A stretch of DNA of 50,796 nucleotides from Candidatus Omnitrophota bacterium (lineage in GTDB: Bacteria > Omnitrophota > Gorgyraeia > Gygaellales > Profunditerraquicolaceae): positions 1-50,796 of the forward strand of contig JALOQJ010000012.1 of the NCBI GenBank assembly GCA_025453445.1, read 5' to 3'. Below the pieces are notes generated by a model. It saw only the letters and a program-made list of their open reading frames with translations, had not been told where the DNA came from and ran no database searches. Position numbers and translations under genes: made by a program. Positions 8,411-24,018 of this stretch are shown here, piece after piece. The stretch's first letter is position 1. Each line of letters begins with the position of its first letter.

Positions 8411-8974
8411 TTAAGCGACCCTTTCCACATAACTGGCGCTGCGCGTATCCACCTTGATCTTATCTCCGGGATTAATAAAAAGCGGGACCTGAATAGTGGC
8501 TCCGGTCTCAATCTCCGCCGGCTTAGTGCCGCTTTTGGCAGTATCGCCTTTGACCCCCGGCTCTGTATGGGTAATTTCAACCTCGATAAAATTCGGCAGG
8601 CTGATATTTAAAAAGTCACCTTTATAAAAATAGGCAGAAACATCCAAATTATCTTTTAAAAATTTAACTTTATCGCCTATATTTTCTTTGGAGATAGCTA
8701 CTTCTTCGTAATTATCAGAATCCATAAAGTGGTAAAGATCGCCGCTGGAATACTGATACTGCAGCTTTCTTTCTTCCACAAAAGCCTCTTCTATTTTTTC
8801 ATCGCCGCGAAAAGTCTTTTCCTGAATACTGTTATTTTTAAGGTTCCTGAGCTTAGCGCGCACAAAAGCCGCTCCCTTGCCAGGCTTAACGTGCTGGCTA
8901 TCCACCACAAGCCAAGCCTCATTTTCCACAAATACTGTTACTCCTACTTTAATTTCATTTATCGAGAGTGACAC
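8411..8974 (-). CDS. efp: Elongation factor P
   Basis: HVKPGKGAAFVR, PGVKGDTA and ETGATIQVPLFINPGD motifs. Confidence 0.97.
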   Translation of the reverse strand: MSLSINEIKVGVTVFVENEAWLVVDSQHVKPGKGAAFVRAKLRNLKNNSIQEKTFRGDEKIEEAFVEERKLQYQYSSGDLYHFMDSDNYEEVAISKENIGDKVKFLKDNLDVSAYFYKGDFLNISLPNFIEVEITHTEPGVKGDTAKSGTKPAEIETGATIQVPLFINPGDKIKVDTRSASYVERVA

Positions 8975-10013
8975 TGATAACCTCAGCTCCTTTCCTGGTG
9001 ACTAAACAAATATCTTCCAGCCTGATGCCGAATCTTCCCGGCAAATAAATCGCAGGCTCTACAGTAAAAACCATGCCTGCTTTAAGTAAACTCTTCTCTT
9101 TTCCTGATATGTGGGGCGCTTCGTGGACTTCCAAACCGATACCATGGCCTAAACTATGGCTAAAATACCGGCCAAAACCCTTTTTAGCTATATATTGGCG
9201 GCTGGCTGCATCAACTTCGCTGATTTCCACGCCAGGCTTTATCCTGCTGATTGCCCGCTTCTGCGCTGCAAGCACAATATCATAAATCCTTCTTGCTGAG
9301 CTGTTTATTTTACCTGAAAAGAATACCCTTGTCAAGTCGGATTTAAAACCAAGATAATCCACTCCAGCATCAATTAACACCGGCTCACCAGCTTTAATCT
9401 TTCTTTCAGAAGTAAGGTGGTGCGGGTAGCTTGAGTTAGGGCCGGAAGCAACAATAATATCAAAACTGGAGGCATAAGCGCCGTTATACCTGATAAAATG
9501 CTCTAATTCAGCAGCTACCTCAATTTCCTTTCTGCCGGGCGTAATATAGCCCTGAATAAACCTAAAGGCTGCAATGGCAATCTCTATCGCCTTCCTGATT
9601 TTTGCGATTTCTTCAGCAGTTTTTATCTGCCTTAGCTCTTCAACAATCCCATGTGTAGGAATTAATTCTATTCCGTAATCCCAACCCTCCCTGATTTTAT
9701 TGTATTCAGCAAAAGGCAGGTATCTTTCTTCAAAGCCCACGCGGTTAAAGTGAAGCTTCTTACAGGCATCAGCAATGGTTTTAAAAACTGAACCTTTAAT
9801 CTCCAGTAAAGTGCAACCCTTAAGGTTTTTCTTTGCTTCAGTGGTATAGCGGGAATCAGTAATATAAATATTTTTTTGCTTGGAAACTAAAAGATAGGCG
9901 TCGCGGCTGCGGGTATTAGTAAGGTAAGAAATATTCGGCTCGTGGGAAAGAATCAAGCCATCGAGTTTGAGCTTATTTAATTCTTTATAAACTTGTTTGA
10001 TCCGGGGATTCAT
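8955..10013 (-). CDS. Xaa-Pro aminopeptidase/dipeptidase (M24B)
   Basis: Creatinase-like N-domain; [25 protein letters not shown] and GIRLED motifs; aroQ-peptidase-efp synteny. Confidence 0.92.
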
Positions 10014-10453
10014 GATTGCGCATGCAGTAAATCAACCAGCGCCTCAAGGCCTAAAATATAGCTCTGAGGCCCAAAACCCAGTATGGTGCCGCGAGCTACC
10101 GGGCTAATCAGTGATTTATGCCTGAATTTTTCGCGGGCGTAGATATTGGAAAGGTGCACTTCCACTGTTAAAATACCGGAAGCAGAAATAGCATCTCTGA
10201 CAGCAACGCTGGTGTGCGTGTAGGCTGCGGGATTGATCAAAAGAGCATCAAACTTTTTTTTGCCTTTAGTAATCAAATCCACGATTTCGCCTTCGTGGTT
10301 AGATTGTTTTATTGCCAAGCTGACTTTTCTAAGCTTTGCCAGCTTTTTCAGGCTCTGGTTAATCTCATTTAATGTCACTCTGCCATAAACCGCAGGCTCT
10401 CTTGTACCGAGCAAATTGAGATTCGGGCCATGAATAACTAATATTTTCTTCAT
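10010..10453 (-). CDS. aroQ: Type II 3-dehydroquinate dehydratase
   Basis: [31 protein letters not shown] and [11 protein letters not shown] motifs. Confidence 0.97.
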
Positions 10454-10725
10454 TTTTGCCCACCCTGATTTTTAGCGACATACTGCGTGCGCAATTCATA
10501 CAGCATATTCTCCAGTAATTTACTTTCTTCCGGAGTAAGGTTGCCTTTGGTTTTTTCCTGTAGCATCCCCAAAGTATCGATAATGAACTTTGCCTGCGGC
10601 AAATCTTCTTCTTTTTTATCAGTCATCGGATTATTCATTTCGCCTAAGAAAATCGCTGCCTGAATACCCAAAGTAGTGAGAAAAAATTTAAAATCTGCCG
10701 GGGGTGGAATAAATTTTTCTTCCAT
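10450..10725 (-). CDS. DUF1844-like protein
   Basis: [24 protein letters not shown]...LYELR motif. Confidence 0.85.
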
Positions 10726-10729
10726 GAGT

Positions 10730-11554
10730 TTAGTGAATGGTTATTCCGGCATATCCGACAACACTAGAAGTATCGCCGGTAGAATCGCCGGAAGTCTGAT
10801 ATTTGATTAATTCGCCTTTTTTTGCCCCTAATAATTTTGCGCAAACCAGCATCATGCATACCGGAGCATATCCGCACATAGAAATATTTAAGCCATCTAC
10901 TTCTTCTGTCAACCTATCTTCATCCAGCGCTAAAATTGCCTCAATTGCTCTGGTGTCTTTCGTTTTCGCCTGCTCTTCAGGCTCATAATGAGTCATATCA
11001 GAACTGGCAACAATTAACACTGAGGACTGCAAACCTGAACTCTTTACTGCTACGGCAATTGCTTTGCCAGCTTCTTTTAAATCTGCAAGCTTATCAGACA
11101 TTACAGTAACCGGCACAATCTGAAACGATTTTTTAAAATACTGCAATATCGGCAGCTCTACTTCCAGAGAATGTTCATTCAGATGCGCTAGGCTATCTTC
11201 CTCAAAATATTGTTCGCCTGCCTTAAGGATTTCCCGGGCTAAAGCAGTATTAATTGTAACGCTGCCCAAAGGAGTTTCCCACACGCCTTCTGTCTCTATG
11301 CTGAAATCCGATCCATTGCCAGTATGGTTTGGCCCAAGCAAAATTATTGTATCCTTAATATTAATCCGCGAAACAGTTTCCACTGCCACTCTTCCGGAAT
11401 AAATATACCCTGCATGCGGAAGCATACAAGCAATACAATCATCTTTCTTAAGAGAAGGAACAAGAAATTTTTCTATCAACTTGGCAACCTCTCCTGCAGC
11501 AGCAGGATAAAATTGCCCAGAAACAACCGGTTTTCTGATCTTAGATTTTTCCAT
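10730..11554 (-). CDS. amrB: MEMO1 family protein (AmmeMemoRadiSam protein B)
   Basis: RKPVVSGQFYP, PHAGYIYSG, GPNH, EHSLEVELP, SSDMTHY, SMCG and VVGYAG motifs. Confidence 0.92.
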   Translation of the reverse strand: MEKSKIRKPVVSGQFYPAAAGEVAKLIEKFLVPSLKKDDCIACMLPHAGYIYSGRVAVETVSRINIKDTIILLGPNHTGNGSDFSIETEGVWETPLGSVTINTALAREILKAGEQYFEEDSLAHLNEHSLEVELPILQYFKKSFQIVPVTVMSDKLADLKEAGKAIAVAVKSSGLQSSVLIVASSDMTHYEPEEQAKTKDTRAIEAILALDEDRLTEEVDGLNISMCGYAPVCMMLVCAKLLGAKKGELIKYQTSGDSTGDTSSVVGYAGITIH

Positions 11555-12464
11555 GGAAAGCTTTTTCTAAAATTCTTCTGCTTTCGATTAATTCAACTGC
11601 TGTTGCCGGATGATGCGCCTCAATAACTTTTATCGTCTCAGGCTTTAAATATGGCTCAATTTTAGTAAAATCAATTTCCCCGTTGCTGGGCGCCTGATGA
11701 TCCGAACACCCGGAAACATTATGCAGATGAATTCCCAGCATGTCCCGGGCATATGCCTCAAGATAATCTTTATGCTTATTAAACCCCAGGCGTTCCATTA
11801 TCTCGGCATGCCCTACATCATGCCAATAAAAAATACCCGAGCCTTTGAATTTTTTCAGGATAATACCGATTTCCTCAAAAGCAGGGGTTTCACGATAATA
11901 AAAACGGGTTTCTACACCAAGAAATACGCCGGCTTTATCCGCATAAGAAACAAGCTCTTCAAGGCTTTTTAGCGCAGATGTAAAAAATGGTGCGGATGAT
12001 TTTTTTCTTTCCCTGATTGCTTCATCTCTCAGGCGAATAAATTCCGGAGAATCTTTCCTGCCTTCGGAATAAAAATTAATCAACTGCCGGGTAAAATCAG
12101 GGATTTCCACCCTGCCACTGTGCAAAACCACTGCTTTGGCATTCAGCTGAACAGCAGTTTCAATAGTTTTTTTTGTCAGCGCTACTGCCTTTAGCCGCTC
12201 AGCTTCATCCAAAGAAGCTAACGAATAACAATCAGGCAAAGCCAATTCGCGCGCCAAACCATCTGGTATAGGGCAATAATTATGCAGGCTGGAAACTAAT
12301 ATCTGCCTGTTTTTCACAAGCCCGGCAATATCTTTTACCATCTGAGGCGTCAGATTAAAACTAAGCTCTATCTCTTTAAAACCGAGCGCCTCAATTTCAA
12401 AGACCATATCCCTGCCATTAACGTAACGGAAGGCATTCCACGAGGTTGAGAGTGAAAAACCCAT
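11541..12464 (-). CDS. Xylose-isomerase-like TIM-barrel protein (sugar phosphate isomerase/epimerase / AP-endonuclease-2 family)
   Basis: SSLHNYCP, VVLHSG, GVETR, WHDVGH, IHLH and DHQAP metal-binding pattern. Confidence 0.8.
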   Translation of the reverse strand: MGFSLSTSWNAFRYVNGRDMVFEIEALGFKEIELSFNLTPQMVKDIAGLVKNRQILVSSLHNYCPIPDGLARELALPDCYSLASLDEAERLKAVALTKKTIETAVQLNAKAVVLHSGRVEIPDFTRQLINFYSEGRKDSPEFIRLRDEAIRERKKSSAPFFTSALKSLEELVSYADKAGVFLGVETRFYYRETPAFEEIGIILKKFKGSGIFYWHDVGHAEIMERLGFNKHKDYLEAYARDMLGIHLHNVSGCSDHQAPSNGEIDFTKIEPYLKPETIKVIEAHHPATAVELIESRRILEKAFHGKI

Positions 12465-18013: not shown

Positions 18014-18517
18014 TTAGCTATTCAACAAGTAGTAAAAAGTCTCGATTTTTTTCCGGCTTTGCTCGTCAAATTTAATTAATAATTCGAATTCTTGAGAATT
18101 ATTTTTTCGCGGCCAAACCCGGGATATTTTTCCATCAAAGATTATCCCGCTTTTATTATCCGTATTAAACGACCATTGCAAAGTGACTTCGACCTCCGGA
18201 TGTAAAGATTCTTTGGCTATACATAATAATCCCAATGAACTGATATCAATCGTGCGCACAATAATAGTTTTATTTTCATAAGTCAGAGCAACATAGCTTT
18301 CGAACTCAAAGCGCCGGAATTTCCTATTTTCAATGAAGACGTTTTTATCAATTTTAGCGCAGGCAACTTCCCATTGCCTGCCGTATTTGGCAACCCAATC
18401 AATTGCCGCTGTGCCAAAGCCGATTTCATAGCCCGCTTTTTCACTTTCTATCCACTGATGCTTCCTGATTTCCGCAATGGAACGCGGATCCCTCAAATAT
18501 GGATATGACCCTTTCAC
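18014..18517 (-). CDS. PilZ-domain protein with N-terminal DUF4032-like helical domain
   Basis: N-terminal EIRKHQWIESEKAGYEIGFGTAAIDWV; c-di-GMP motifs RxxxR (RKFRR) and DxSxxG (DISSLG); GTG start after GGAGGG. Confidence 0.8.
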   Translation of the reverse strand: MKGSYPYLRDPRSIAEIRKHQWIESEKAGYEIGFGTAAIDWVAKYGRQWEVACAKIDKNVFIENRKFRRFEFESYVALTYENKTIIVRTIDISSLGLLCIAKESLHPEVEVTLQWSFNTDNKSGIIFDGKISRVWPRKNNSQEFELLIKFDEQSRKKIETFYYLLNS

Positions 18518-18596: not shown

Positions 18597-20786
18597 TTAT
18601 TTGAAGATGGGGAGTTCTACAACGAAGCGGGTGCCGGATTGATAGACGGAATCAAAAGAAATGCTGCCTTTGTGGCCGTCGGTAATAATTTTATTAATCA
18701 CATACAGGCCAAGGCCAGTGCCTTTGCGCGCGGAGATTTTAGTGGTAAAAAATGGCGTAAAAATTTTCTTTAAGTTCTCTTCTTTCATACCCATGCCATT
18801 ATCTTCCACTACAATTTCCAGATGCTCCCCCTTAGGCAAAGTAGAAAATGTAATCTTGCCGCGGAAACCATCTTCTTTAAGTGTAGTGCGGCGTTCAACA
18901 ATCGCGTCATAGGCATTATCAATAAAATTAAAAAAGACCTCCTGCAGCTGGACAAGATTACCTTTGACTTTCGGGATATCTTTGGAAAAATCACGCAGCA
19001 AATCAAATTCATCCAGCTTAACTTTATATTTCACCATATCCAAGGTCCCGTCGATAATCTGATCTAAAGTCAGGGCTTCGAACTTTTCTTCGCCTTTACG
19101 TGTATATTTCATTATACCCTTTACCACTTCCCCGCCCTGCATAACATTTGCCTGAATGCGGTCAAGGGCATGCGAAACAGAATCAATCATTTCTTTAACT
19201 TCCGGAGTGCATTTTGTGGTATCCATTAATTTAATTGTATCTATTGTGTCTCCGGCAATTAAAGACAAGGCATAAAAACGGTTATTTATCTGATGCGATA
19301 ATCCGTCTGCCATGGTTCCGATGGTTGCCATTTTTTCTGCCTGGGCAATCTGTGACTGCATTTCCTGCGCTTCATCATAAAACTGGGCATTCTCAATTGC
19401 CAATGCTGCCTGGCTTGCCAGAACCTGAAAAACATTCAAGTCATCCTCAGTATAAATTTGGCCGGAAAGCTTATCGCCCAACACAATAAAACCCATAAAC
19501 TTATCTTCAAGGAAAATCGGGATGAGCACTGAGGCAGCCAAGAGACGCATATTTTCTTCCAGATGCTGATAAGTGGCATCGCTTGTATCCTCCATCTGGC
19601 GCTTGGCTTCTTCATAAATCAGCGGCTCGCGCTTAAACATCAACCATGCAATCATAGGATTATCAGCGGGTAATTTTGGAAGCGAAATCCTATGCCTGCC
19701 GCGGCTTACCTGCAGAATATATTCATCAGTTTCAGAATGATAAAGATAAACCGCAGCATAAGAAATTTTAACTGTCTTGGTTACAATATGAGTAATTAAA
19801 TTCAGCAGCCTTTGTAAATTCCTGATACTCGTCATTCCGATAGAAGCATGTTTTAAGGTATTCTGATAACGCTTTTGCTCAGCAAGCAAGCGCTCCTCTG
19901 CCTGACGGCTGACATAAATGTAAATAAAAGGCCCGGCCGTGGCTAAAACGGCCATCAACCCCAGAGGGGCTAACCACCATCCCGGGCCTAATATATCAAT
20001 TAACCAAGCTTTCAGCCAAACTGCTAAAGCAAACGGAATACCAAGAACCAAGGTATAAACTGCTATGAATATCCCGGCGCGGGTAATGGCAACGGTAATA
20101 TCCATGAGGCGGTATTTGATCATGGCATAAGCAATAATAAGTGGGTATAACGCAACAAAAAAATTAAGGTATGGATAAATATCTACGCGAAATGCTGGTA
20201 AAAAATTAGCCTCTGCTCCTATCCAGCCAACAATGGAACCTACAATAAAATATTTTAATTGATTACGACGGATACCGCCGGAGGGTTTATATGCCTTTAT
20301 TAATAATAAAAATGAGTACGATAATAATACCCAGTAGAGACATATATAGAATAATAACCAAATCAAGGTCTTATACTTGCTCCAATCAATCCAATAAAAT
20401 TTACCAAATATAAATCTTAAGTCTCTTAAAAAGAACAATGAGTGATTATACCAATTAGAAAGTAAGAAAAATAAAGCTAGCGCATGAATTATTAAAATAA
20501 GGTATTTTCGTTTTAAATTTAAGAACCTAAAAATAAAATGAGAAAAAAATACAGGGACGTATATTGCTCCCGTATAAGCTACTTGCCACCAAAATAAAGC
20601 TAAATTATATTGAGAAATAGACAGACTAGAAAACATGCAGGCTCCTAGCCCCCAAGTCCCTACACTTATAGCAATTCCACTAAACAATCGATTGTTTAGA
20701 CTTCGCCATCCCCTAGACAAAACAAAAATAGCTATGGCAAAATTACTTACTACAGTTAGAATACCTGATAAGAAAAATATGTTCAT
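18597..20786 (-). CDS. Membrane sensor histidine kinase (multi-TM HisKA_7TM-like N-terminus, GAF, HisKA, HATPase)
   Basis: About 9 hydrophobic segments; GAF ending LASQAALAIENAQFY; H-box SHQINN, N-box NFIDNAYDA, DNGMG, FTPFFTTK and GTGLGL. Confidence 0.92.
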   Translation of the reverse strand: MNIFFLSGILTVVSNFAIAIFVLSRGWRSLNNRLFSGIAISVGTWGLGACMFSSLSISQYNLALFWWQVAYTGAIYVPVFFSHFIFRFLNLKRKYLILIIHALALFFLLSNWYNHSLFFLRDLRFIFGKFYWIDWSKYKTLIWLLFYICLYWVLLSYSFLLLIKAYKPSGGIRRNQLKYFIVGSIVGWIGAEANFLPAFRVDIYPYLNFFVALYPLIIAYAMIKYRLMDITVAITRAGIFIAVYTLVLGIPFALAVWLKAWLIDILGPGWWLAPLGLMAVLATAGPFIYIYVSRQAEERLLAEQKRYQNTLKHASIGMTSIRNLQRLLNLITHIVTKTVKISYAAVYLYHSETDEYILQVSRGRHRISLPKLPADNPMIAWLMFKREPLIYEEAKRQMEDTSDATYQHLEENMRLLAASVLIPIFLEDKFMGFIVLGDKLSGQIYTEDDLNVFQVLASQAALAIENAQFYDEAQEMQSQIAQAEKMATIGTMADGLSHQINNRFYALSLIAGDTIDTIKLMDTTKCTPEVKEMIDSVSHALDRIQANVMQGGEVVKGIMKYTRKGEEKFEALTLDQIIDGTLDMVKYKVKLDEFDLLRDFSKDIPKVKGNLVQLQEVFFNFIDNAYDAIVERRTTLKEDGFRGKITFSTLPKGEHLEIVVEDNGMGMKEENLKKIFTPFFTTKISARKGTGLGLYVINKIITDGHKGSISFDSVYQSGTRFVVELPIFK

Positions 20787-20793
20787 ATGTCGA

Positions 20794-22224
20794 TTATCCC
20801 TTAGCGCTGACTATAATTTTTGCCGCTTCCCTTCCTGAAAGAGCAACAACAGAAATCCCACTTTGCCCCATGCCATTTGTAACCCAATGACCAGAGAGAT
20901 AAAGATTTTTGATACTTGTCTGGTACGGAAAAATACTTTTACTCGTTTGGGAAGGTAATGCTTGCCATCCAAAAAGAGCCCCATTTCTATTCGAAGTATA
21001 GTTATAGAATGAACGAGGGGTACCTATTACTTTAAGTTCAATTGATTCTGCTAAATCTGGTAACATCCTACTAGCTCTAGTAATAATTTTATTATATAAC
21101 TCATTTTTACTATTTTCCCACATCTTCACAGAAGCATACCTAGCGCCAACGAATATTCTCATAATTCCTTTTCCTGAAGGAACTAGGCTCTTATCAATAA
21201 GTGAAGGAAAGCTACAAAGTAAGTAATCAAAGCTCGGAATCAACTGTTTCTTTTTATCACTTTGAAAATTGTAGCACTTTTCTATATCGTAGGTAGAGAA
21301 AAACCATGTAGTAAAATGTTTCGGTTTTATATTTAATTGCTTCTTAAGGCCCAAGTACACAACAAAGGCAGAATTTGAAATTTTCAATTTATTTACCACC
21401 TTACGTTCATTACACTCGCAGTCTAATAATGTATTAAATGTTAAATGGGCATCAACGTTTGACACTACAAATTTCGATACTATGCATCCCTTATCTTGTA
21501 ATTTTACACCCATCACTTTTTTTTGTTTTGTCATAATTCTCGTTACTCTATTGGACAATAAAAGTACACCGCCGTATTCCCTAAATTTTTCCGCTAATAA
21601 ATCGGGTAAATTCTGAATTCCGCCTTTTGGATAATAGCCACCGTCTAACACAAATTCTTTATAAATAATAGCACCGACAAATCCGGAAGACTGAGAAGAA
21701 GATAACCCAAGGTTCCCAAGCATAGTTGATAAAATTGCTTTCAATTTGTGGTCAGTTAAAAATATATCGAGTAAATCTTGAAAAGTACGATTTCGCAGCT
21801 TAGAATAGAGACTTAAAAAATCTTCATTAATAATTAAATTAAAAAGTCTTTTTATATTTTCTTTCTCTTTGGGAAAATGGGATATTAATTCATTTATCGT
21901 TTTGTTTTGATCCTTTCTTATAAATATTGTTTTATCCGGGGTAATAATTCTATCCGTAGGATCATTCCTAATTAATTTTATCCTATCTAAAAGGTCTAGC
22001 CCTCGTAAAATCTCAGAAAGCACTCCTTTTTCTCTAAGTGACCCTAAATAATGCACCCCCACATCAAATCTATATCCTTGCCTCTCGAACGACGTGCAAT
22101 AGCCGCCGGGTTTATTTTGCTGTTCGACAATAATGACCTTGAGACCGGCTTTGGCTAAGTAGCAGCCGCAAACAAGGCCGCCAATTCCTGCGCCAATAAT
22201 CGCTACATCGTATTTCTCACTCAT
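20794..22224 (-). CDS. FAD-dependent oxidoreductase, phytoene desaturase / retinol saturase-like (COG1233)
   Basis: IIGAGIGGL, GGYCTSFERQGYRFDVG, YYPKGG, TP...Y...NGALFG and NLYLSGHW motifs. Confidence 0.88.
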   Translation of the reverse strand: MSEKYDVAIIGAGIGGLVCGCYLAKAGLKVIIVEQQNKPGGYCTSFERQGYRFDVGVHYLGSLREKGVLSEILRGLDLLDRIKLIRNDPTDRIITPDKTIFIRKDQNKTINELISHFPKEKENIKRLFNLIINEDFLSLYSKLRNRTFQDLLDIFLTDHKLKAILSTMLGNLGLSSSQSSGFVGAIIYKEFVLDGGYYPKGGIQNLPDLLAEKFREYGGVLLLSNRVTRIMTKQKKVMGVKLQDKGCIVSKFVVSNVDAHLTFNTLLDCECNERKVVNKLKISNSAFVVYLGLKKQLNIKPKHFTTWFFSTYDIEKCYNFQSDKKKQLIPSFDYLLCSFPSLIDKSLVPSGKGIMRIFVGARYASVKMWENSKNELYNKIITRASRMLPDLAESIELKVIGTPRSFYNYTSNRNGALFGWQALPSQTSKSIFPYQTSIKNLYLSGHWVTNGMGQSGISVVALSGREAAKIIVSAKG

Positions 22225-22820
22225 TTAATATACTTTATTGCCTCAGTTAACGGCTTTCTTGGCGAACGACGGCCTTCTTCATCTGCATAGCCAAGAGTTA
22301 AAACCGCTATTAAGTCATCTTTTACGCCCAAAAGCTTATTAATTTCATTCTTAGAGAAAAGTGGCGTATCCAACCAGCAAGAGCCAATACCTAAAGCTTC
22401 TGCTGCAAGAATCATATTCTGAATTGCAGCAGATATCGCAGATAATTCTGCACGCGGAATTATCTCGCCAAAATTATTATAAGCTGCCTTATACTTATTC
22501 TTTAATTTCGCTAAGTCGCCGGAATTATAAATTAAAATTACTGCCGGTGCGCAAGCAATAATCCGCGAGCCGGCGCTTAAAAGAATATTTGCCCCTGCGC
22601 CTAATTTCTTTGATCTCGCAAGCGCAATCTCTGAAATTTTCTTGATTGTAGTTTTTTTGGTGATGACAATAAAACGCCACGGTTGAATTCGCAAAAAACT
22701 CGGCACCGACGGCCCCCAGATTCCGGCTTCAATAATTTTATCGAGTATTTTTTGGGGTATTGGCTTATTTTTATATCTTCTGATCGTGCGGCGGGTTTTG
22801 ATAAGCTTAAGAATATCCAT
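22221..22820 (-). CDS. Nitroreductase family protein
   Basis: IKTRRTIRRY, QPWRF, AIQNMILAAEALGIGSCW, LGY and RKPL motifs. Confidence 0.9.
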   Translation of the reverse strand: MDILKLIKTRRTIRRYKNKPIPQKILDKIIEAGIWGPSVPSFLRIQPWRFIVITKKTTIKKISEIALARSKKLGAGANILLSAGSRIIACAPAVILIYNSGDLAKLKNKYKAAYNNFGEIIPRAELSAISAAIQNMILAAEALGIGSCWLDTPLFSKNEINKLLGVKDDLIAVLTLGYADEEGRRSPRKPLTEAIKYIK

Positions 22821-23253
22821 AGCCTTCTTCTATTTTAGAAATCTCAGGCTGCTTAACTTTAGTAAGAAGAGATAACTCATTCTGACTTAATCCCCGTTCA
22901 ACTCTTGCTTGCCTGATCAACATGCCTATTTTTTTGAAAAACAACGATGGCTCCCCTTTTGGCTTTCTCTGCTTGATACCGCGCTTCTCCAAGAGCTGCT
23001 CATAAATTGTCTGCCACCAATCTTTAAAATCAGATTTCCGGTTAATCTTGGACCAATATAATTTTACCCCCGGCCAGGCCTTAATAAAATTATTTTTAGA
23101 AATAAATAAAAAAACCTCCCCGGGCTTGTCGCAACGAGAAAGCAAGGTGACCATGCGTTGGTTAAATTGCGGATGAAGCGGATTTTTCAGTATACTGCAA
23201 GTTTCTTTAAGTGCTCCCTTTTTTAAATCCCAGAAATACTTAGCTATCTTCAT
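22807..23253 (-). CDS. Putative antitoxin/regulator with C-terminal XRE-type HTH, apparently truncated
   Basis: IRQARVERGLSQNELSLLTKVKQPEISKIEEG, then a stop 4 residues later; abuts the AbiEii gene. Confidence 0.7.
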   Translation of the reverse strand: MKIAKYFWDLKKGALKETCSILKNPLHPQFNQRMVTLLSRCDKPGEVFLFISKNNFIKAWPGVKLYWSKINRKSDFKDWWQTIYEQLLEKRGIKQRKPKGEPSLFFKKIGMLIRQARVERGLSQNELSLLTKVKQPEISKIEEGYGYS

Positions 23254-23964
23254 TTAGTACATTGCCTCAGCTATAAACTTCTTTATTTCATTCTCTAAAT
23301 ATATAATCATCTGTTGAGAATCGAACTTCTTATCATAAATATCCAAATCAAGCAATCCTAATTTCAATTCCTGACGGGAAAATGACCTGTACCAGTGGAC
23401 CATACCCCGTTGCAGGACTCCAGAAACACTCTTTAAGAATTTATGTAAGGGCATTATCTTCTTAGAGAGGCAATATATATCGAAAATATCCTTTGCCGCC
23501 CTTCTGCCCTGCATAACTTCCCTGCCTATTTCATCAAATTCCGGACGGCTTCCGGTTATTGCCAAAATTTTCTGTAAATATATATTATTGACGCTATAAA
23601 CCCTGACTCCATCAATTTTCTTAATGTCGGGATTTTTAAAAAACAGGTCCTCAACAAAATCAATCTTCAAGGGCCGGCCCGAGCCGCCTAGTGCAAAACT
23701 GTAAAACCGCACTCTTGCTTTATCCGGCAAAAAAAGTTCATTCTCAAGCTTGATTTTTGATTTAGAAACAGTTTTAAGGTTATTTATAATATTCTCTATC
23801 TCAGGCTGCTTGAAGGAAGGCGAAAAAAAATCAAGATCAGCCGAGAATCGGTGCTTTAAATAATAAAGCTCCAGTGCAGTGCCTCCGCAAAGAGCAAAAG
23901 TTTTTGCGCTTTTAGAAAAAACCCTTAATGTTTTTAATTGTAATTCTCTTAGTTTTTTGTCCAT
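23254..23964 (-). CDS. AbiEii/AbiGii-family nucleotidyltransferase (type IV TA toxin-like)
   Basis: FALCGGTAL...HRFSADLDFF, KIDFV, KILA and KDIFDIY motifs. Confidence 0.88.
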   Translation of the reverse strand: MDKKLRELQLKTLRVFSKSAKTFALCGGTALELYYLKHRFSADLDFFSPSFKQPEIENIINNLKTVSKSKIKLENELFLPDKARVRFYSFALGGSGRPLKIDFVEDLFFKNPDIKKIDGVRVYSVNNIYLQKILAITGSRPEFDEIGREVMQGRRAAKDIFDIYCLSKKIMPLHKFLKSVSGVLQRGMVHWYRSFSRQELKLGLLDLDIYDKKFDSQQMIIYLENEIKKFIAEAMY

Positions 23965-23990
23965 TTTTTAATATATTAAAACCTATATTA

Positions 23991-24018
23991 AGTATATATT
24001 ATAGCATATAATTGTCAA
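23991..24018 (-). promoter_or_regulatory. Sigma70-type promoter for the AbiEii module
   Basis: TTGACA (24018-24013), 16-nt spacer, TATACT (23996-23991); 16-bp AT-only palindrome at 23966-23981. Confidence 0.6.

Follow-up and report, generated by a model that had tools for sequence, protein, structure and literature searches.

The window analysed here comprises positions 1 to 50,796 of contig JALOQJ010000012.1, 50,796 nucleotides (nt) from a Candidatus Omnitrophota bacterium with a genome of about 1.29 Mb (G000), and all positions refer to it. On its minus strand the last enzyme gene of a lipid operon, encoding a CrtI-like oxidoreductase, is followed directly by the gene of a sensor histidine kinase, and a block of low G+C content (GC) runs from the body of the enzyme into the sensor domain of the kinase. 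The origin of this enzyme and sensor block is the subject of the present analysis. It was compared across 204 family genomes from 98 genera; G-numbers denote the genome under study (G000) and the genomes of its relatives, L-numbers loci and P-numbers database kinases, and L067 is the collinear locus of the closest relative. The features that the argument requires are the following.

20794..22224, minus strand: CrtI-like flavin adenine dinucleotide (FAD) oxidoreductase gene, 476 amino acids (aa), last enzyme gene of the lipid operon; open reading frame (ORF) intact.
18597..20786, minus strand: sensor histidine kinase gene, 729 aa, with HisKA_7TM, GAF and HATPase domains; ORF intact.
20142..20786, minus strand: variable seven-transmembrane (7TM) sensor segment, kinase aa 1-215, set by identity to L067 and by GC at third codon positions (GC3).
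20097..20129, minus strand: YAMIKYRLMDI motif, kinase aa 220-230, proposed recombination junction, just after the seventh helix.
18597..20096, minus strand: conserved kinase core, aa 231-729, set by identity to L067 and to other genera.
22075..22107, minus strand: GGYCTSFERQG motif, oxidoreductase aa 40-50, at the upstream GC3 step.
20130..22080, minus strand: low-GC, low-GC3 block of oxidoreductase body and kinase 7TM sensor, set by GC statistics.
20131..24012, minus strand: block saturated in divergence from L067, about 3.9 kb, set by DNA identity and four-fold degenerate sites.

The oxidoreductase matched the Pfam family Amino_oxidase (PF01593) at 86.7 bits, against a cut-off of 19.8, and also NAD_binding_8; the NCBIfam model crtI_fam (TIGR02734) scored 158.9 bits, under its cut-off of 238.1. 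The closest solved structures by sequence were the CrtI phytoene desaturase 4dgk (E=3.5e-26) and the CrtD-like desaturase 4rep (1.4e-22), which have the FAD-binding N-terminus in common with the window enzyme. The latter differs from CrtI in the context of its operon, which is lipid or polyketide-like and not carotenoid. In the kinase, HisKA_7TM (PF16927) was matched at aa 10-231 (55.8 bits), GAF at aa 323-464 (45.1) and HATPase_c at aa 611-727 (81.2), the complete set expected of a HisKA_7TM-GAF sensor kinase. The stop codon of the oxidoreductase and the start of the kinase are 7 nt apart, and no signal-precursor gene lies between the two. With so short a spacer, any signal would therefore be the small-molecule product of the operon.

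An earlier reading of this DNA, made from the letters alone (the sequence-only reading), had described a sharply bounded low-GC cassette with edges inside both genes, at the two motifs listed above. Its G+C counts per 60 nt were exact (14, 13 and 14 in the lines starting at 20401, 20461 and 21781, versus 33, 29 and 33 at 19921, 22081 and 22141), its placement of both motifs was correct, and the two ORFs stay in frame as it had said. The GC of 20130-22080 was 0.328, compared with a genome mean of 0.414 (standard deviation [sd] 0.0187 over 11,866 windows of 1950 nt; z=-4.58). Equally low values were found in 0.076% of G000 windows, making the block the second-lowest distinct GC region of the genome. 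The only region of G000 below it lies on contig C33 at about 8700-11800 (GC 0.314) and holds three ORFs with a GC3 of 0.19-0.26.

GC3 fell together with GC. The oxidoreductase body had a GC3 of 0.28 and kinase aa 1-215/220 one of 0.26-0.27, whereas the remainder of the kinase reached 0.44 and the opening 50-60 codons of the oxidoreductase 0.50-0.54. A GC3 of 0.27 or less occurred in only 0.4% of 3,593 genome windows of 215 codons, and 119 hydrophobic, transmembrane (TM)-like windows elsewhere in G000 had an ordinary GC3 of 0.406. Maximum-likelihood (ML) change points in GC3 were placed at kinase residue 221 (likelihood-ratio test [LRT] 21.7) and at oxidoreductase residue 49 (LRT 15.1); the upstream edge is the weaker of the two and is based on only about 50 codons. 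Since GC3 drops too, amino-acid composition alone, which the sequence-only reading had named as a possible explanation, does not account for the dip, and as its sole cause it was ruled out by these GC3 controls.

The low composition of the block was not confined to G000. Orthologues of the oxidoreductase (E <= 1e-70) were detected in 25 of the 204 family genomes and 23 of the 98 genera, with a best identity of only 55%. At all 25 loci where the oxidoreductase directly precedes the kinase, loci with a paralogous class of kinase and from another family of the order included, the enzyme body and the sensor were low in GC and GC3 whatever the GC of the host. GC3 averaged 0.269 (sd 0.032) in the block core and 0.466 (sd 0.066) in the remaining part of the kinase (n=22, Wilcoxon p=4.8e-7), and regression of the former on host GC3 gave a slope of 0.03 (r=0.07). 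In G005, a host of about 60% GC, the block had a GC of 0.31-0.40 between flanks of about 0.6. There, the nitroreductase and oxidoreductase codons 1-59 were at host composition (GC about 0.6, GC3 0.79), after which GC3 fell to 0.36 (LRT 39). The low-GC sensor of G005 reaches the end of its contig, and the kinase core resumes at a GC of 0.58-0.61 on a second contig; the two share an overlap of more than 31 nt, about 55 nt by one reading of the contig ends. Four of six kinase orthologues without an adjacent oxidoreductase showed no dip (sensor/rest GC3 0.50/0.51, 0.50/0.47, 0.63/0.69 and 0.42/0.48), and among 14 oxidoreductase homologues not followed by a kinase, four had a body GC3 of at least 0.38. 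The dip is thus a family trait and not a single-genome event: it is common to all 25 pairs, among which there was no sign of recency, and the idea of an event peculiar to this genome was not borne out. The low GC3 marks DNA without the compositional history of its host.

The block was next compared with L067, a collinear locus found in a metagenome scan with the kinase core and about 84% identical to G000 at the DNA level. Upstream of the oxidoreductase, the operon holds, in order, a nitroreductase, an AbiEi/AbiEii pair, a GMC oxidoreductase and a thioester reductase. Farther upstream on the same strand are two FabF-like ketosynthases with an acyl carrier protein (ACP) gene between them, and then an acyl-ACP-reductase-like gene. 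Three of these upstream genes fall within the region that differs from L067.

22221..22820, minus strand: nitroreductase-family gene (Pfam Nitroreductase), within the block divergent from L067.
22807..23253, minus strand: AbiEi-like helix-turn-helix (HTH) gene (Pfam HTH_3, 29.7 bits), inserted in the operon.
23254..23964, minus strand: AbiEii nucleotidyltransferase toxin gene (PF08843, 68.3 bits), adjoining the HTH gene.

Collinearity of G000 with L067 extends over 8 kb on the downstream side and 2 kb on the upstream side, with an identity of about 80-94%, and the neighbouring proteins (SMC, PilZ, a 114-aa ORF, GMC oxidoreductase and thioester reductase) are 85-92% identical. Between these flanks the block proteins are far less alike: oxidoreductase 43%, nitroreductase 58.5%, and 34-35% for the AbiE pair, which occupies the same site in both. 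The division runs through the kinase itself, whose sensor is 44% identical and whose core is 92% identical. DNA identity to L067 was 0.79-0.82 above 24012, 0.32-0.72 from 24012 to 20132 and 0.82-0.94 from 20131 down, with a step from 0.62 to 0.82-0.91 at KYRLMDI. The upstream edge that the sequence-only reading had set near 22080 therefore stands as a step in GC3, found at oxidoreductase residues 45-71 in 12 of 26 loci, but not as an edge of divergence from L067. Identity is 0.60-0.66 through that point, and divergence does not end there but continues through the nitroreductase and the toxin-antitoxin pair to about 24012.

As a synonymous control, four-fold sites were examined in codons for the same amino acid, and the share with an identical base in G000 and L067 was scored. 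In the flanks this share was 0.66 for kinase aa 216-729 (n=188), 0.68 for SMC (n=320), 0.60 for the GMC oxidoreductase (n=144), 0.76 for PilZ, 0.72 for the thioester reductase and 0.53 for the 114-aa ORF. In six segments of the block it was 0.26-0.36 (sensor 0.27, nitroreductase 0.35-0.36). Segments with well-conserved proteins were no exception, with 0.35 (n=17) for nitroreductase aa 1-55 at 87% protein identity and 0.26 (n=19) for oxidoreductase aa 1-60 at 78%. Since four-fold sites are saturated even where 78-87% of the protein is conserved, faster protein evolution in place is insufficient, and the ancestor of the block is older than that of the flanks. These data suggest that the block coalesces far deeper than its flanks and that it has been replaced at an orthologous site. 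For the sensor of G000, replacement is indicated by the four-fold sites (n=22) and the DNA step.

The same pattern of conserved flanks and a divergent core, predicted by the sequence-only reading together with shared breakpoints, was seen across orthologous loci, where identity was not uniform along either gene. Identity to relatives in other genera was 75-95% over oxidoreductase aa 1-60 and then about 30-45%; in the kinase it was 20-50% over aa 1-210 and 60-100% beyond, with the core at 55-75% to other genera. End branches had a median of 0.26 in the kinase core and of 0.6-0.7 in sensor and oxidoreductase body. In 12 of 22 loci the GC3 change point of the kinase lay within G000-equivalent residues 208-268 (median 253). 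At the oxidoreductase, loci that lack the step at residues 45-71 have low GC running on upstream.

The kinase-side junction was further examined in a large protein database, in which 1,052 relatives were found at E <= 1e-100; 115 full-length proteins among the 120 listed were analysed. Among these listed proteins, 32 pairs had cores at least 85% identical, and in 27 of the 32 the sensors were less than 50% identical. The ML change point in identity lay at residues 217-228 (G000 numbering) in 22 of the 27 pairs and at 266-277 in the other five. Core and sensor identities of 1.00 and 0.31 (change point 219), 0.99 and 0.30, and 0.99 and 0.25 illustrate the contrast. A DNA step at the same place was present in G133/G134. 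The junction proposed at YAMIKYRLMDI was thereby borne out in three ways, by the comparison with L067, by 22 of 27 database pairs and by the GC3 change points. In a family-wide genome search with the kinase, at least seven of the listed matches, on contigs of metagenome-assembled genomes (MAGs), started at a contig end at query residues 174-269, a break within about 20 nt of the junction (G057:C23, G087:C37, G122:C14, G085:C14, G119:C46, G041:C25 and G005:C19). Assembly graphs branch at this point, as expected of several modules on one conserved core, whether alleles or paralogs, and the contig breaks are only a hint that variants coexist in a species. As a separate observation, G031 (L035, 3766-6669) encodes a 967-aa kinase with two N-terminal matches to the 7TM region, a tandem sensor duplication in one gene.

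Trees of the separate segments disagreed. In the kinase-core tree G000 and L067 were sisters (100/99, path 0.088), whereas the oxidoreductase-body tree placed G000 with G010 (98/98) and L067 with G005 and G106 (100/99), and rejected G000 and L067 as sisters by the approximately unbiased (AU) test (p=2.6e-12). Other sister pairs of the kinase-core tree were likewise rejected on the sensor tree, with p=7e-13 for G133/G134, p=9e-10 for the pair of copies in G112 and p=0.004 for the pair in G058. Groupings not rejected by the AU test were G017 with G107, G000 with G010, and L067 with G005 and G106 (p=0.24) on the sensor tree; G020 with G019 and G123a, and G000 with G010, on the core tree; and G009 with G106 (p=0.087) on the oxidoreductase tree. 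G000 thus combines three affinities in a mosaic: the oxidoreductase body is closest to that of G010, the sensor to that of G107 and the kinase core to that of L067. Collectively, these results suggest that the lineages of the variable segment are older than their hosts and incongruent with the flanks.

To relate the sensor to the gene beside it, the 46 full-length kinases of the orthogroup, from 43 loci, were sorted by their upstream gene. This gene encoded a CrtI-like oxidoreductase in 15 cases, an S-adenosylmethionine (SAM)-methyltransferase in 11, a thioester reductase in four, a GMC oxidoreductase in two, NMO in one, a nitroreductase in one and another product in 11, with none in the remaining one. 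The SAM-methyltransferases upstream of the kinase (11/46; L115, L116, L118 and others) are about 335-350 aa long. The GC3 of the sensor was correlated with that of the upstream gene (r=0.90, n=45), also when the rest of the kinase was controlled for (0.82), while its correlation with the rest of the kinase vanished once the upstream gene was controlled for (partial r=-0.01). The mean absolute difference in GC3 between sensor and upstream gene was 0.037; the mean deficit of the sensor relative to the rest of its own kinase was 0.183, and it was at least 0.10 in 36 of 45 cases. On the sensor tree the enzyme-class label changed five times (minimum three; none of 200 shuffles was as low), compared with 12 times on the core tree (14 of 200 shuffles). 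These counts come from quick trees in which relatives share labels, and the contrast between sensor and core is their informative part. The data support the view that the upstream enzyme and the 7TM sensor behave as a unit at the level of enzyme class. The sequence-only reading, which had proposed such a unit and a test of congruence between the sensor and oxidoreductase trees, is supported at that level, where class labels cluster; within the oxidoreductase class, distances did not co-vary once the core was controlled for.

From these results we propose that the block is probably a hypervariable module of enzyme and 7TM sensor, whose old and deeply diverged lineages have been joined to conserved kinase cores by homologous recombination at the fixed KYRLMDI junction. 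The module would consist of the gene directly upstream of the kinase, here the CrtI-like flavoenzyme, and the 7TM domain of the kinase, with a history apart from that of the core. Joining could have proceeded by allelic replacement from other lineages, by gene conversion between paralogs, or by both. The upstream edge appears to be variable, lying after the first 45-70 codons, which form the FAD-binding start, in about half of the loci and farther upstream in others; in G000 the block exchanged relative to the nearest relative would span about 3.9 kb (20131-24012). The sequence-only reading had attributed the segment to homologous recombination, and that recombination shaped it agrees with our analysis; that the event was particular to G000 or bounded at 22080 does not. 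The low GC3 may fit a segment too diverged from its counterparts to recombine with them, which lacks GC-biased conversion or selection and lies at an AT-rich mutational equilibrium.

Four other explanations were weighed against recombination of modules. Under concerted evolution, the modules would stay where they are as old paralogous loci and the 1.5-kb kinase core would move, homogenised repeatedly by gene conversion among the paralogs of a genome in tracts from KYRLMDI to the stop codon. Several kinases have this appearance: in G133 and G134, which belong to one genus, similarity is confined to kinase nt 668 to about 2190 (identity 0.76-0.99) and drops to 0.27-0.60 on both sides, from just past the stop codon; copies within a genome have sister cores (98 in G112, 99 in G058) and not sister sensors; tandem kinases occur in G117 and G058; and P0009 and P0092 (core 0.93, sensor 0.22) each lie on a 714,469-nt contig, their paralogy being read from this equal size for a genome that is not among the 204 family genomes. 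However, G000 has a single kinase of the orthogroup among the matches listed, the collinear flanks of G000 and L067 are orthologous while the block between them differs, and concerted evolution leaves the saturated nitroreductase and AbiE genes unexplained. We regard it as unlikely to be the explanation of the block, and gene conversion of the kinase core among paralogs at the same junction as a live, complementary process. Fast divergence in place, by which the sensor and the substrate domain of the enzyme evolve faster through diversifying or relaxed selection and AT-biased mutation lowers GC with no exchange, agrees with the branches of the sensor and oxidoreductase body, about 2.3-2.7 times those of the kinase core, with sensor distances that track core distances (r=0.71, p=0.0005) and with a sensor tree that accepts G000 and L067 as sisters. 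It is nevertheless very unlikely. At four-fold sites the block is saturated, its conserved segments included, with 0.26-0.36 identical as opposed to 0.53-0.76 in the flanks; kinase pairs exist with cores 99-100% and sensors 25-31% identical; G005 has a GC3 of 0.36 beside 0.79 in one gene; and for the oxidoreductase this explanation is already contradicted by bodies that fall in different clades.

An artefact of composition, in which hydrophobic 7TM helices and a membrane flavoenzyme need AT-rich or slow rare codons, would explain why the 7TM segment is low in GC1 and GC2 as well, and GC1 is indeed raised over the Gly/Ala-rich FAD-binding start of the enzyme. It is contradicted by the fall in GC3, by the ordinary GC3 of TM-like windows elsewhere, and by the kinases without an oxidoreductase and the oxidoreductases without a kinase that lack the dip, and we consider it barely tenable. 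Little more can be said for a chimeric assembly, in which a low-GC piece of another organism was joined at conserved motifs. Two wetland sequencing runs from two studies (X1, X2) hold the stretch, at 0.95 and 0.71 of sampled words, and their Logan contigs were analysed. In X1, a 2035-nt contig spans 20137-22171 and the next piece ends at 20135, leaving a 1-nt gap at 20136; kinase core positions 19068-19900 are almost uncovered, the core is fragmented with variant pieces, and depth next to the block contig is 2.7 versus 7.1. Both runs also differ from the window at 22135, 22144 and 22147. On the other hand, the same X1 contig crosses the GC step near 22080, both ORFs are intact, and depth stays near 7 across the block, the upstream contig and pieces far downstream (6.7-7.3). 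The two junctions that the sequence-only reading had proposed to check in reads thus differ: a contig spans the upstream one, and support for the kinase-side one is incomplete, with no listed piece across 20136. The same architecture, with both junctions in one contig, is present in most of 25 other loci and in L067, and for this reason a chimera at the kinase-side junction of this contig is unlikely; as an account of the whole block, we find it most improbable. Separately, relative to the window, contigs of X1 and X2 alike are 83 letters longer at 22821/22822, immediately before the start of the nitroreductase, which could reflect an indel variant or a small assembly collapse.

Several points weigh against the proposal of a recombining enzyme and sensor module. 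In the oxidoreductase class, distances of body and sensor showed no co-variation once the core was taken into account (Mantel r=0.31, p=0.09; partial r=0.03, p=0.40; n=15). G000 and L067 remain acceptable as sisters on the sensor tree (p=0.46), so that for this pair the four-fold sites alone favour replacement of the sensor. Enzyme and sensor can, it appears, also be exchanged separately, the body of G000 being nearest G010 and its sensor nearest G107. Clustering of the protein database at 90% identity inflates the share of swapped pairs, leaving the existence of the pairs and the position of the step unaffected, and some swapped pairs may be paralogs within one genome. Several of the groups submitted to the AU test were chosen after the trees had been seen, and the trees of 46 rows were made by a quick method. 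The pattern in G133/G134, where the core alone is shared, is accounted for by homogenised cores no less well than by a moving module, and no listed public contig in X1 or X2 bridges 20136. Finally, the GC3 of the block core (0.27) lies under the kinase-core GC3 of every sampled host, and a simple donor-pool model fails; a low-GC donor in the recent past would suit G005, but none of the sampled modules is close to another.

In staphylococcal agr, the hypervariable region takes in the 3' part of agrB, agrD and the 5' half of agrC. The present block appears to be of the same general form as agr and comQXP, a hypervariable segment over an enzyme gene and the N-terminus of a sensor, set between conserved flanks. 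As in agr, the variable segment spans the end of a processing enzyme and the sensor N-terminus, the cytoplasmic part of the kinase is conserved, and the allelic groups predate the lineages in which they occur. Unlike agr, which has a peptide-precursor gene, the block has only the short spacer, and its enzyme, the last one encoded in a lipid operon, is a CrtI-like flavoprotein. agr forms specificity groups with cross-inhibition, while the block is likened to it by sequence alone and between lineages. With comQXP it shares a modifying-enzyme gene and a kinase sensor N-terminus that vary together beside a conserved kinase C-terminus and response regulator; it differs in that the comQXP signal is an isoprenylated peptide, and in junction motif, domain family (here HisKA_7TM and GAF) and phylum. 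Divergence of ComX and of the N-terminal domain of ComP is mentioned in a passage of PMC4624242 citing Tran et al. 2000. A lower GC of the comQXP core was not confirmed in the literature searched, and a search for trans-species agr variation, or for this operon with the kinase in Omnitrophota, returned nothing usable.

A third comparison is with phcB-phcS-phcR of the Ralstonia solanacearum complex, for which part of PMC6580516 describes an enzyme gene for a fatty-acid-derived signal directly upstream of the sensor kinase gene, with signatures of balancing selection; a passage of the same paper compares agr with phcBSR. The likeness is one of arrangement, methyltransferase and then kinase, as in 11 of the 46 orthogroup kinases, and differs in the window, where an oxidoreductase and not a methyltransferase is upstream. 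By gene content, the operon may also resemble the small fatty-acid-synthase cluster of ladderane type from anammox bacteria, with two FabF-like ketosynthases, an ACP and a phytoene-desaturase-like flavoenzyme, although here the operon ends with a thioester reductase, GMC oxidoreductase, nitroreductase and sensor kinase. From agr, comQXP and phc alike, the block differs in that it lacks a precursor gene, combines one kinase chassis with interchangeable enzyme classes, is joined at one fixed motif and bears a strong composition signature independent of the host. The literature searched held no description of this block.

The evolutionary mechanism appears well supported, and for the signalling function we infer the following. 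The upstream enzyme would make the last change to the lipid-like product of the operon, the matched 7TM domain would sense that product or a related membrane compound, and swapping modules would alter what is made and what is sensed. On this basis Omnitrophota might, as a tentative and somewhat doubtful suggestion, run a lipid-based counterpart of peptide pherotype systems, with a kinase chassis and interchangeable enzyme and 7TM cassettes. In such a system each cassette would pair the final tailoring enzyme of a small specialised-lipid pathway (CrtI-like desaturase, methyltransferase, reductase or GMC oxidase) with the 7TM domain recognising its product. Frequency-dependent selection for private signals would maintain the cassettes as ancient lineages, recombination at a single motif would re-deal them among genomes and paralogs, and the low GC3 would mark a segment cut off from the recombination acting on the rest of the genome. 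If this is true, a modular polymorphism of enzyme and receptor resembling pherotypes would exist outside peptide quorum sensing, and in an uncultured phylum of small cells. The sensor and the enzyme beside it would then mark the step that matters and offer a handle on the product of a small lipid synthase. For the construction of chimeric 7TM kinases, the fixed junction may supply a natural design rule. In metagenomics, the module would account for the recurrent contig breaks and GC anomalies at the locus, and it could be a well-defined natural example in which to ask why exchangeable segments that persist for long remain AT-rich.

The remaining observations concern the neighbourhood of the block. 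AbiEii and the adjacent HTH antitoxin were recognised from their sequences as a predicted AbiE type IV toxin-antitoxin pair. It sits within the lipid operon, and AbiE genes were present at 6 of 39 related loci. The AbiEii of G015 (L037), from another genus, is much closer to that of the window than is the AbiEii of L067 (299 versus 146.7 bits). Downstream of the kinase, a PilZ-domain gene (18014-18517) follows in G000, L067 and G017; in most other relatives a response regulator takes its place, followed by a conserved 388-aa gene. Beyond the latter is a set of further conserved genes, putative glycosyltransferase and acyltransferase genes as judged from the first residues only. Giant genes are reported for Omnitrophota in a preprint (bioRxiv 10.1101/2023.11.21.568195), and giant frames were also seen here: an ORF of 57,756 aa at about 144640 of G020:C5, and in G000 those at C56 53161-83697 and C18 509-23323.

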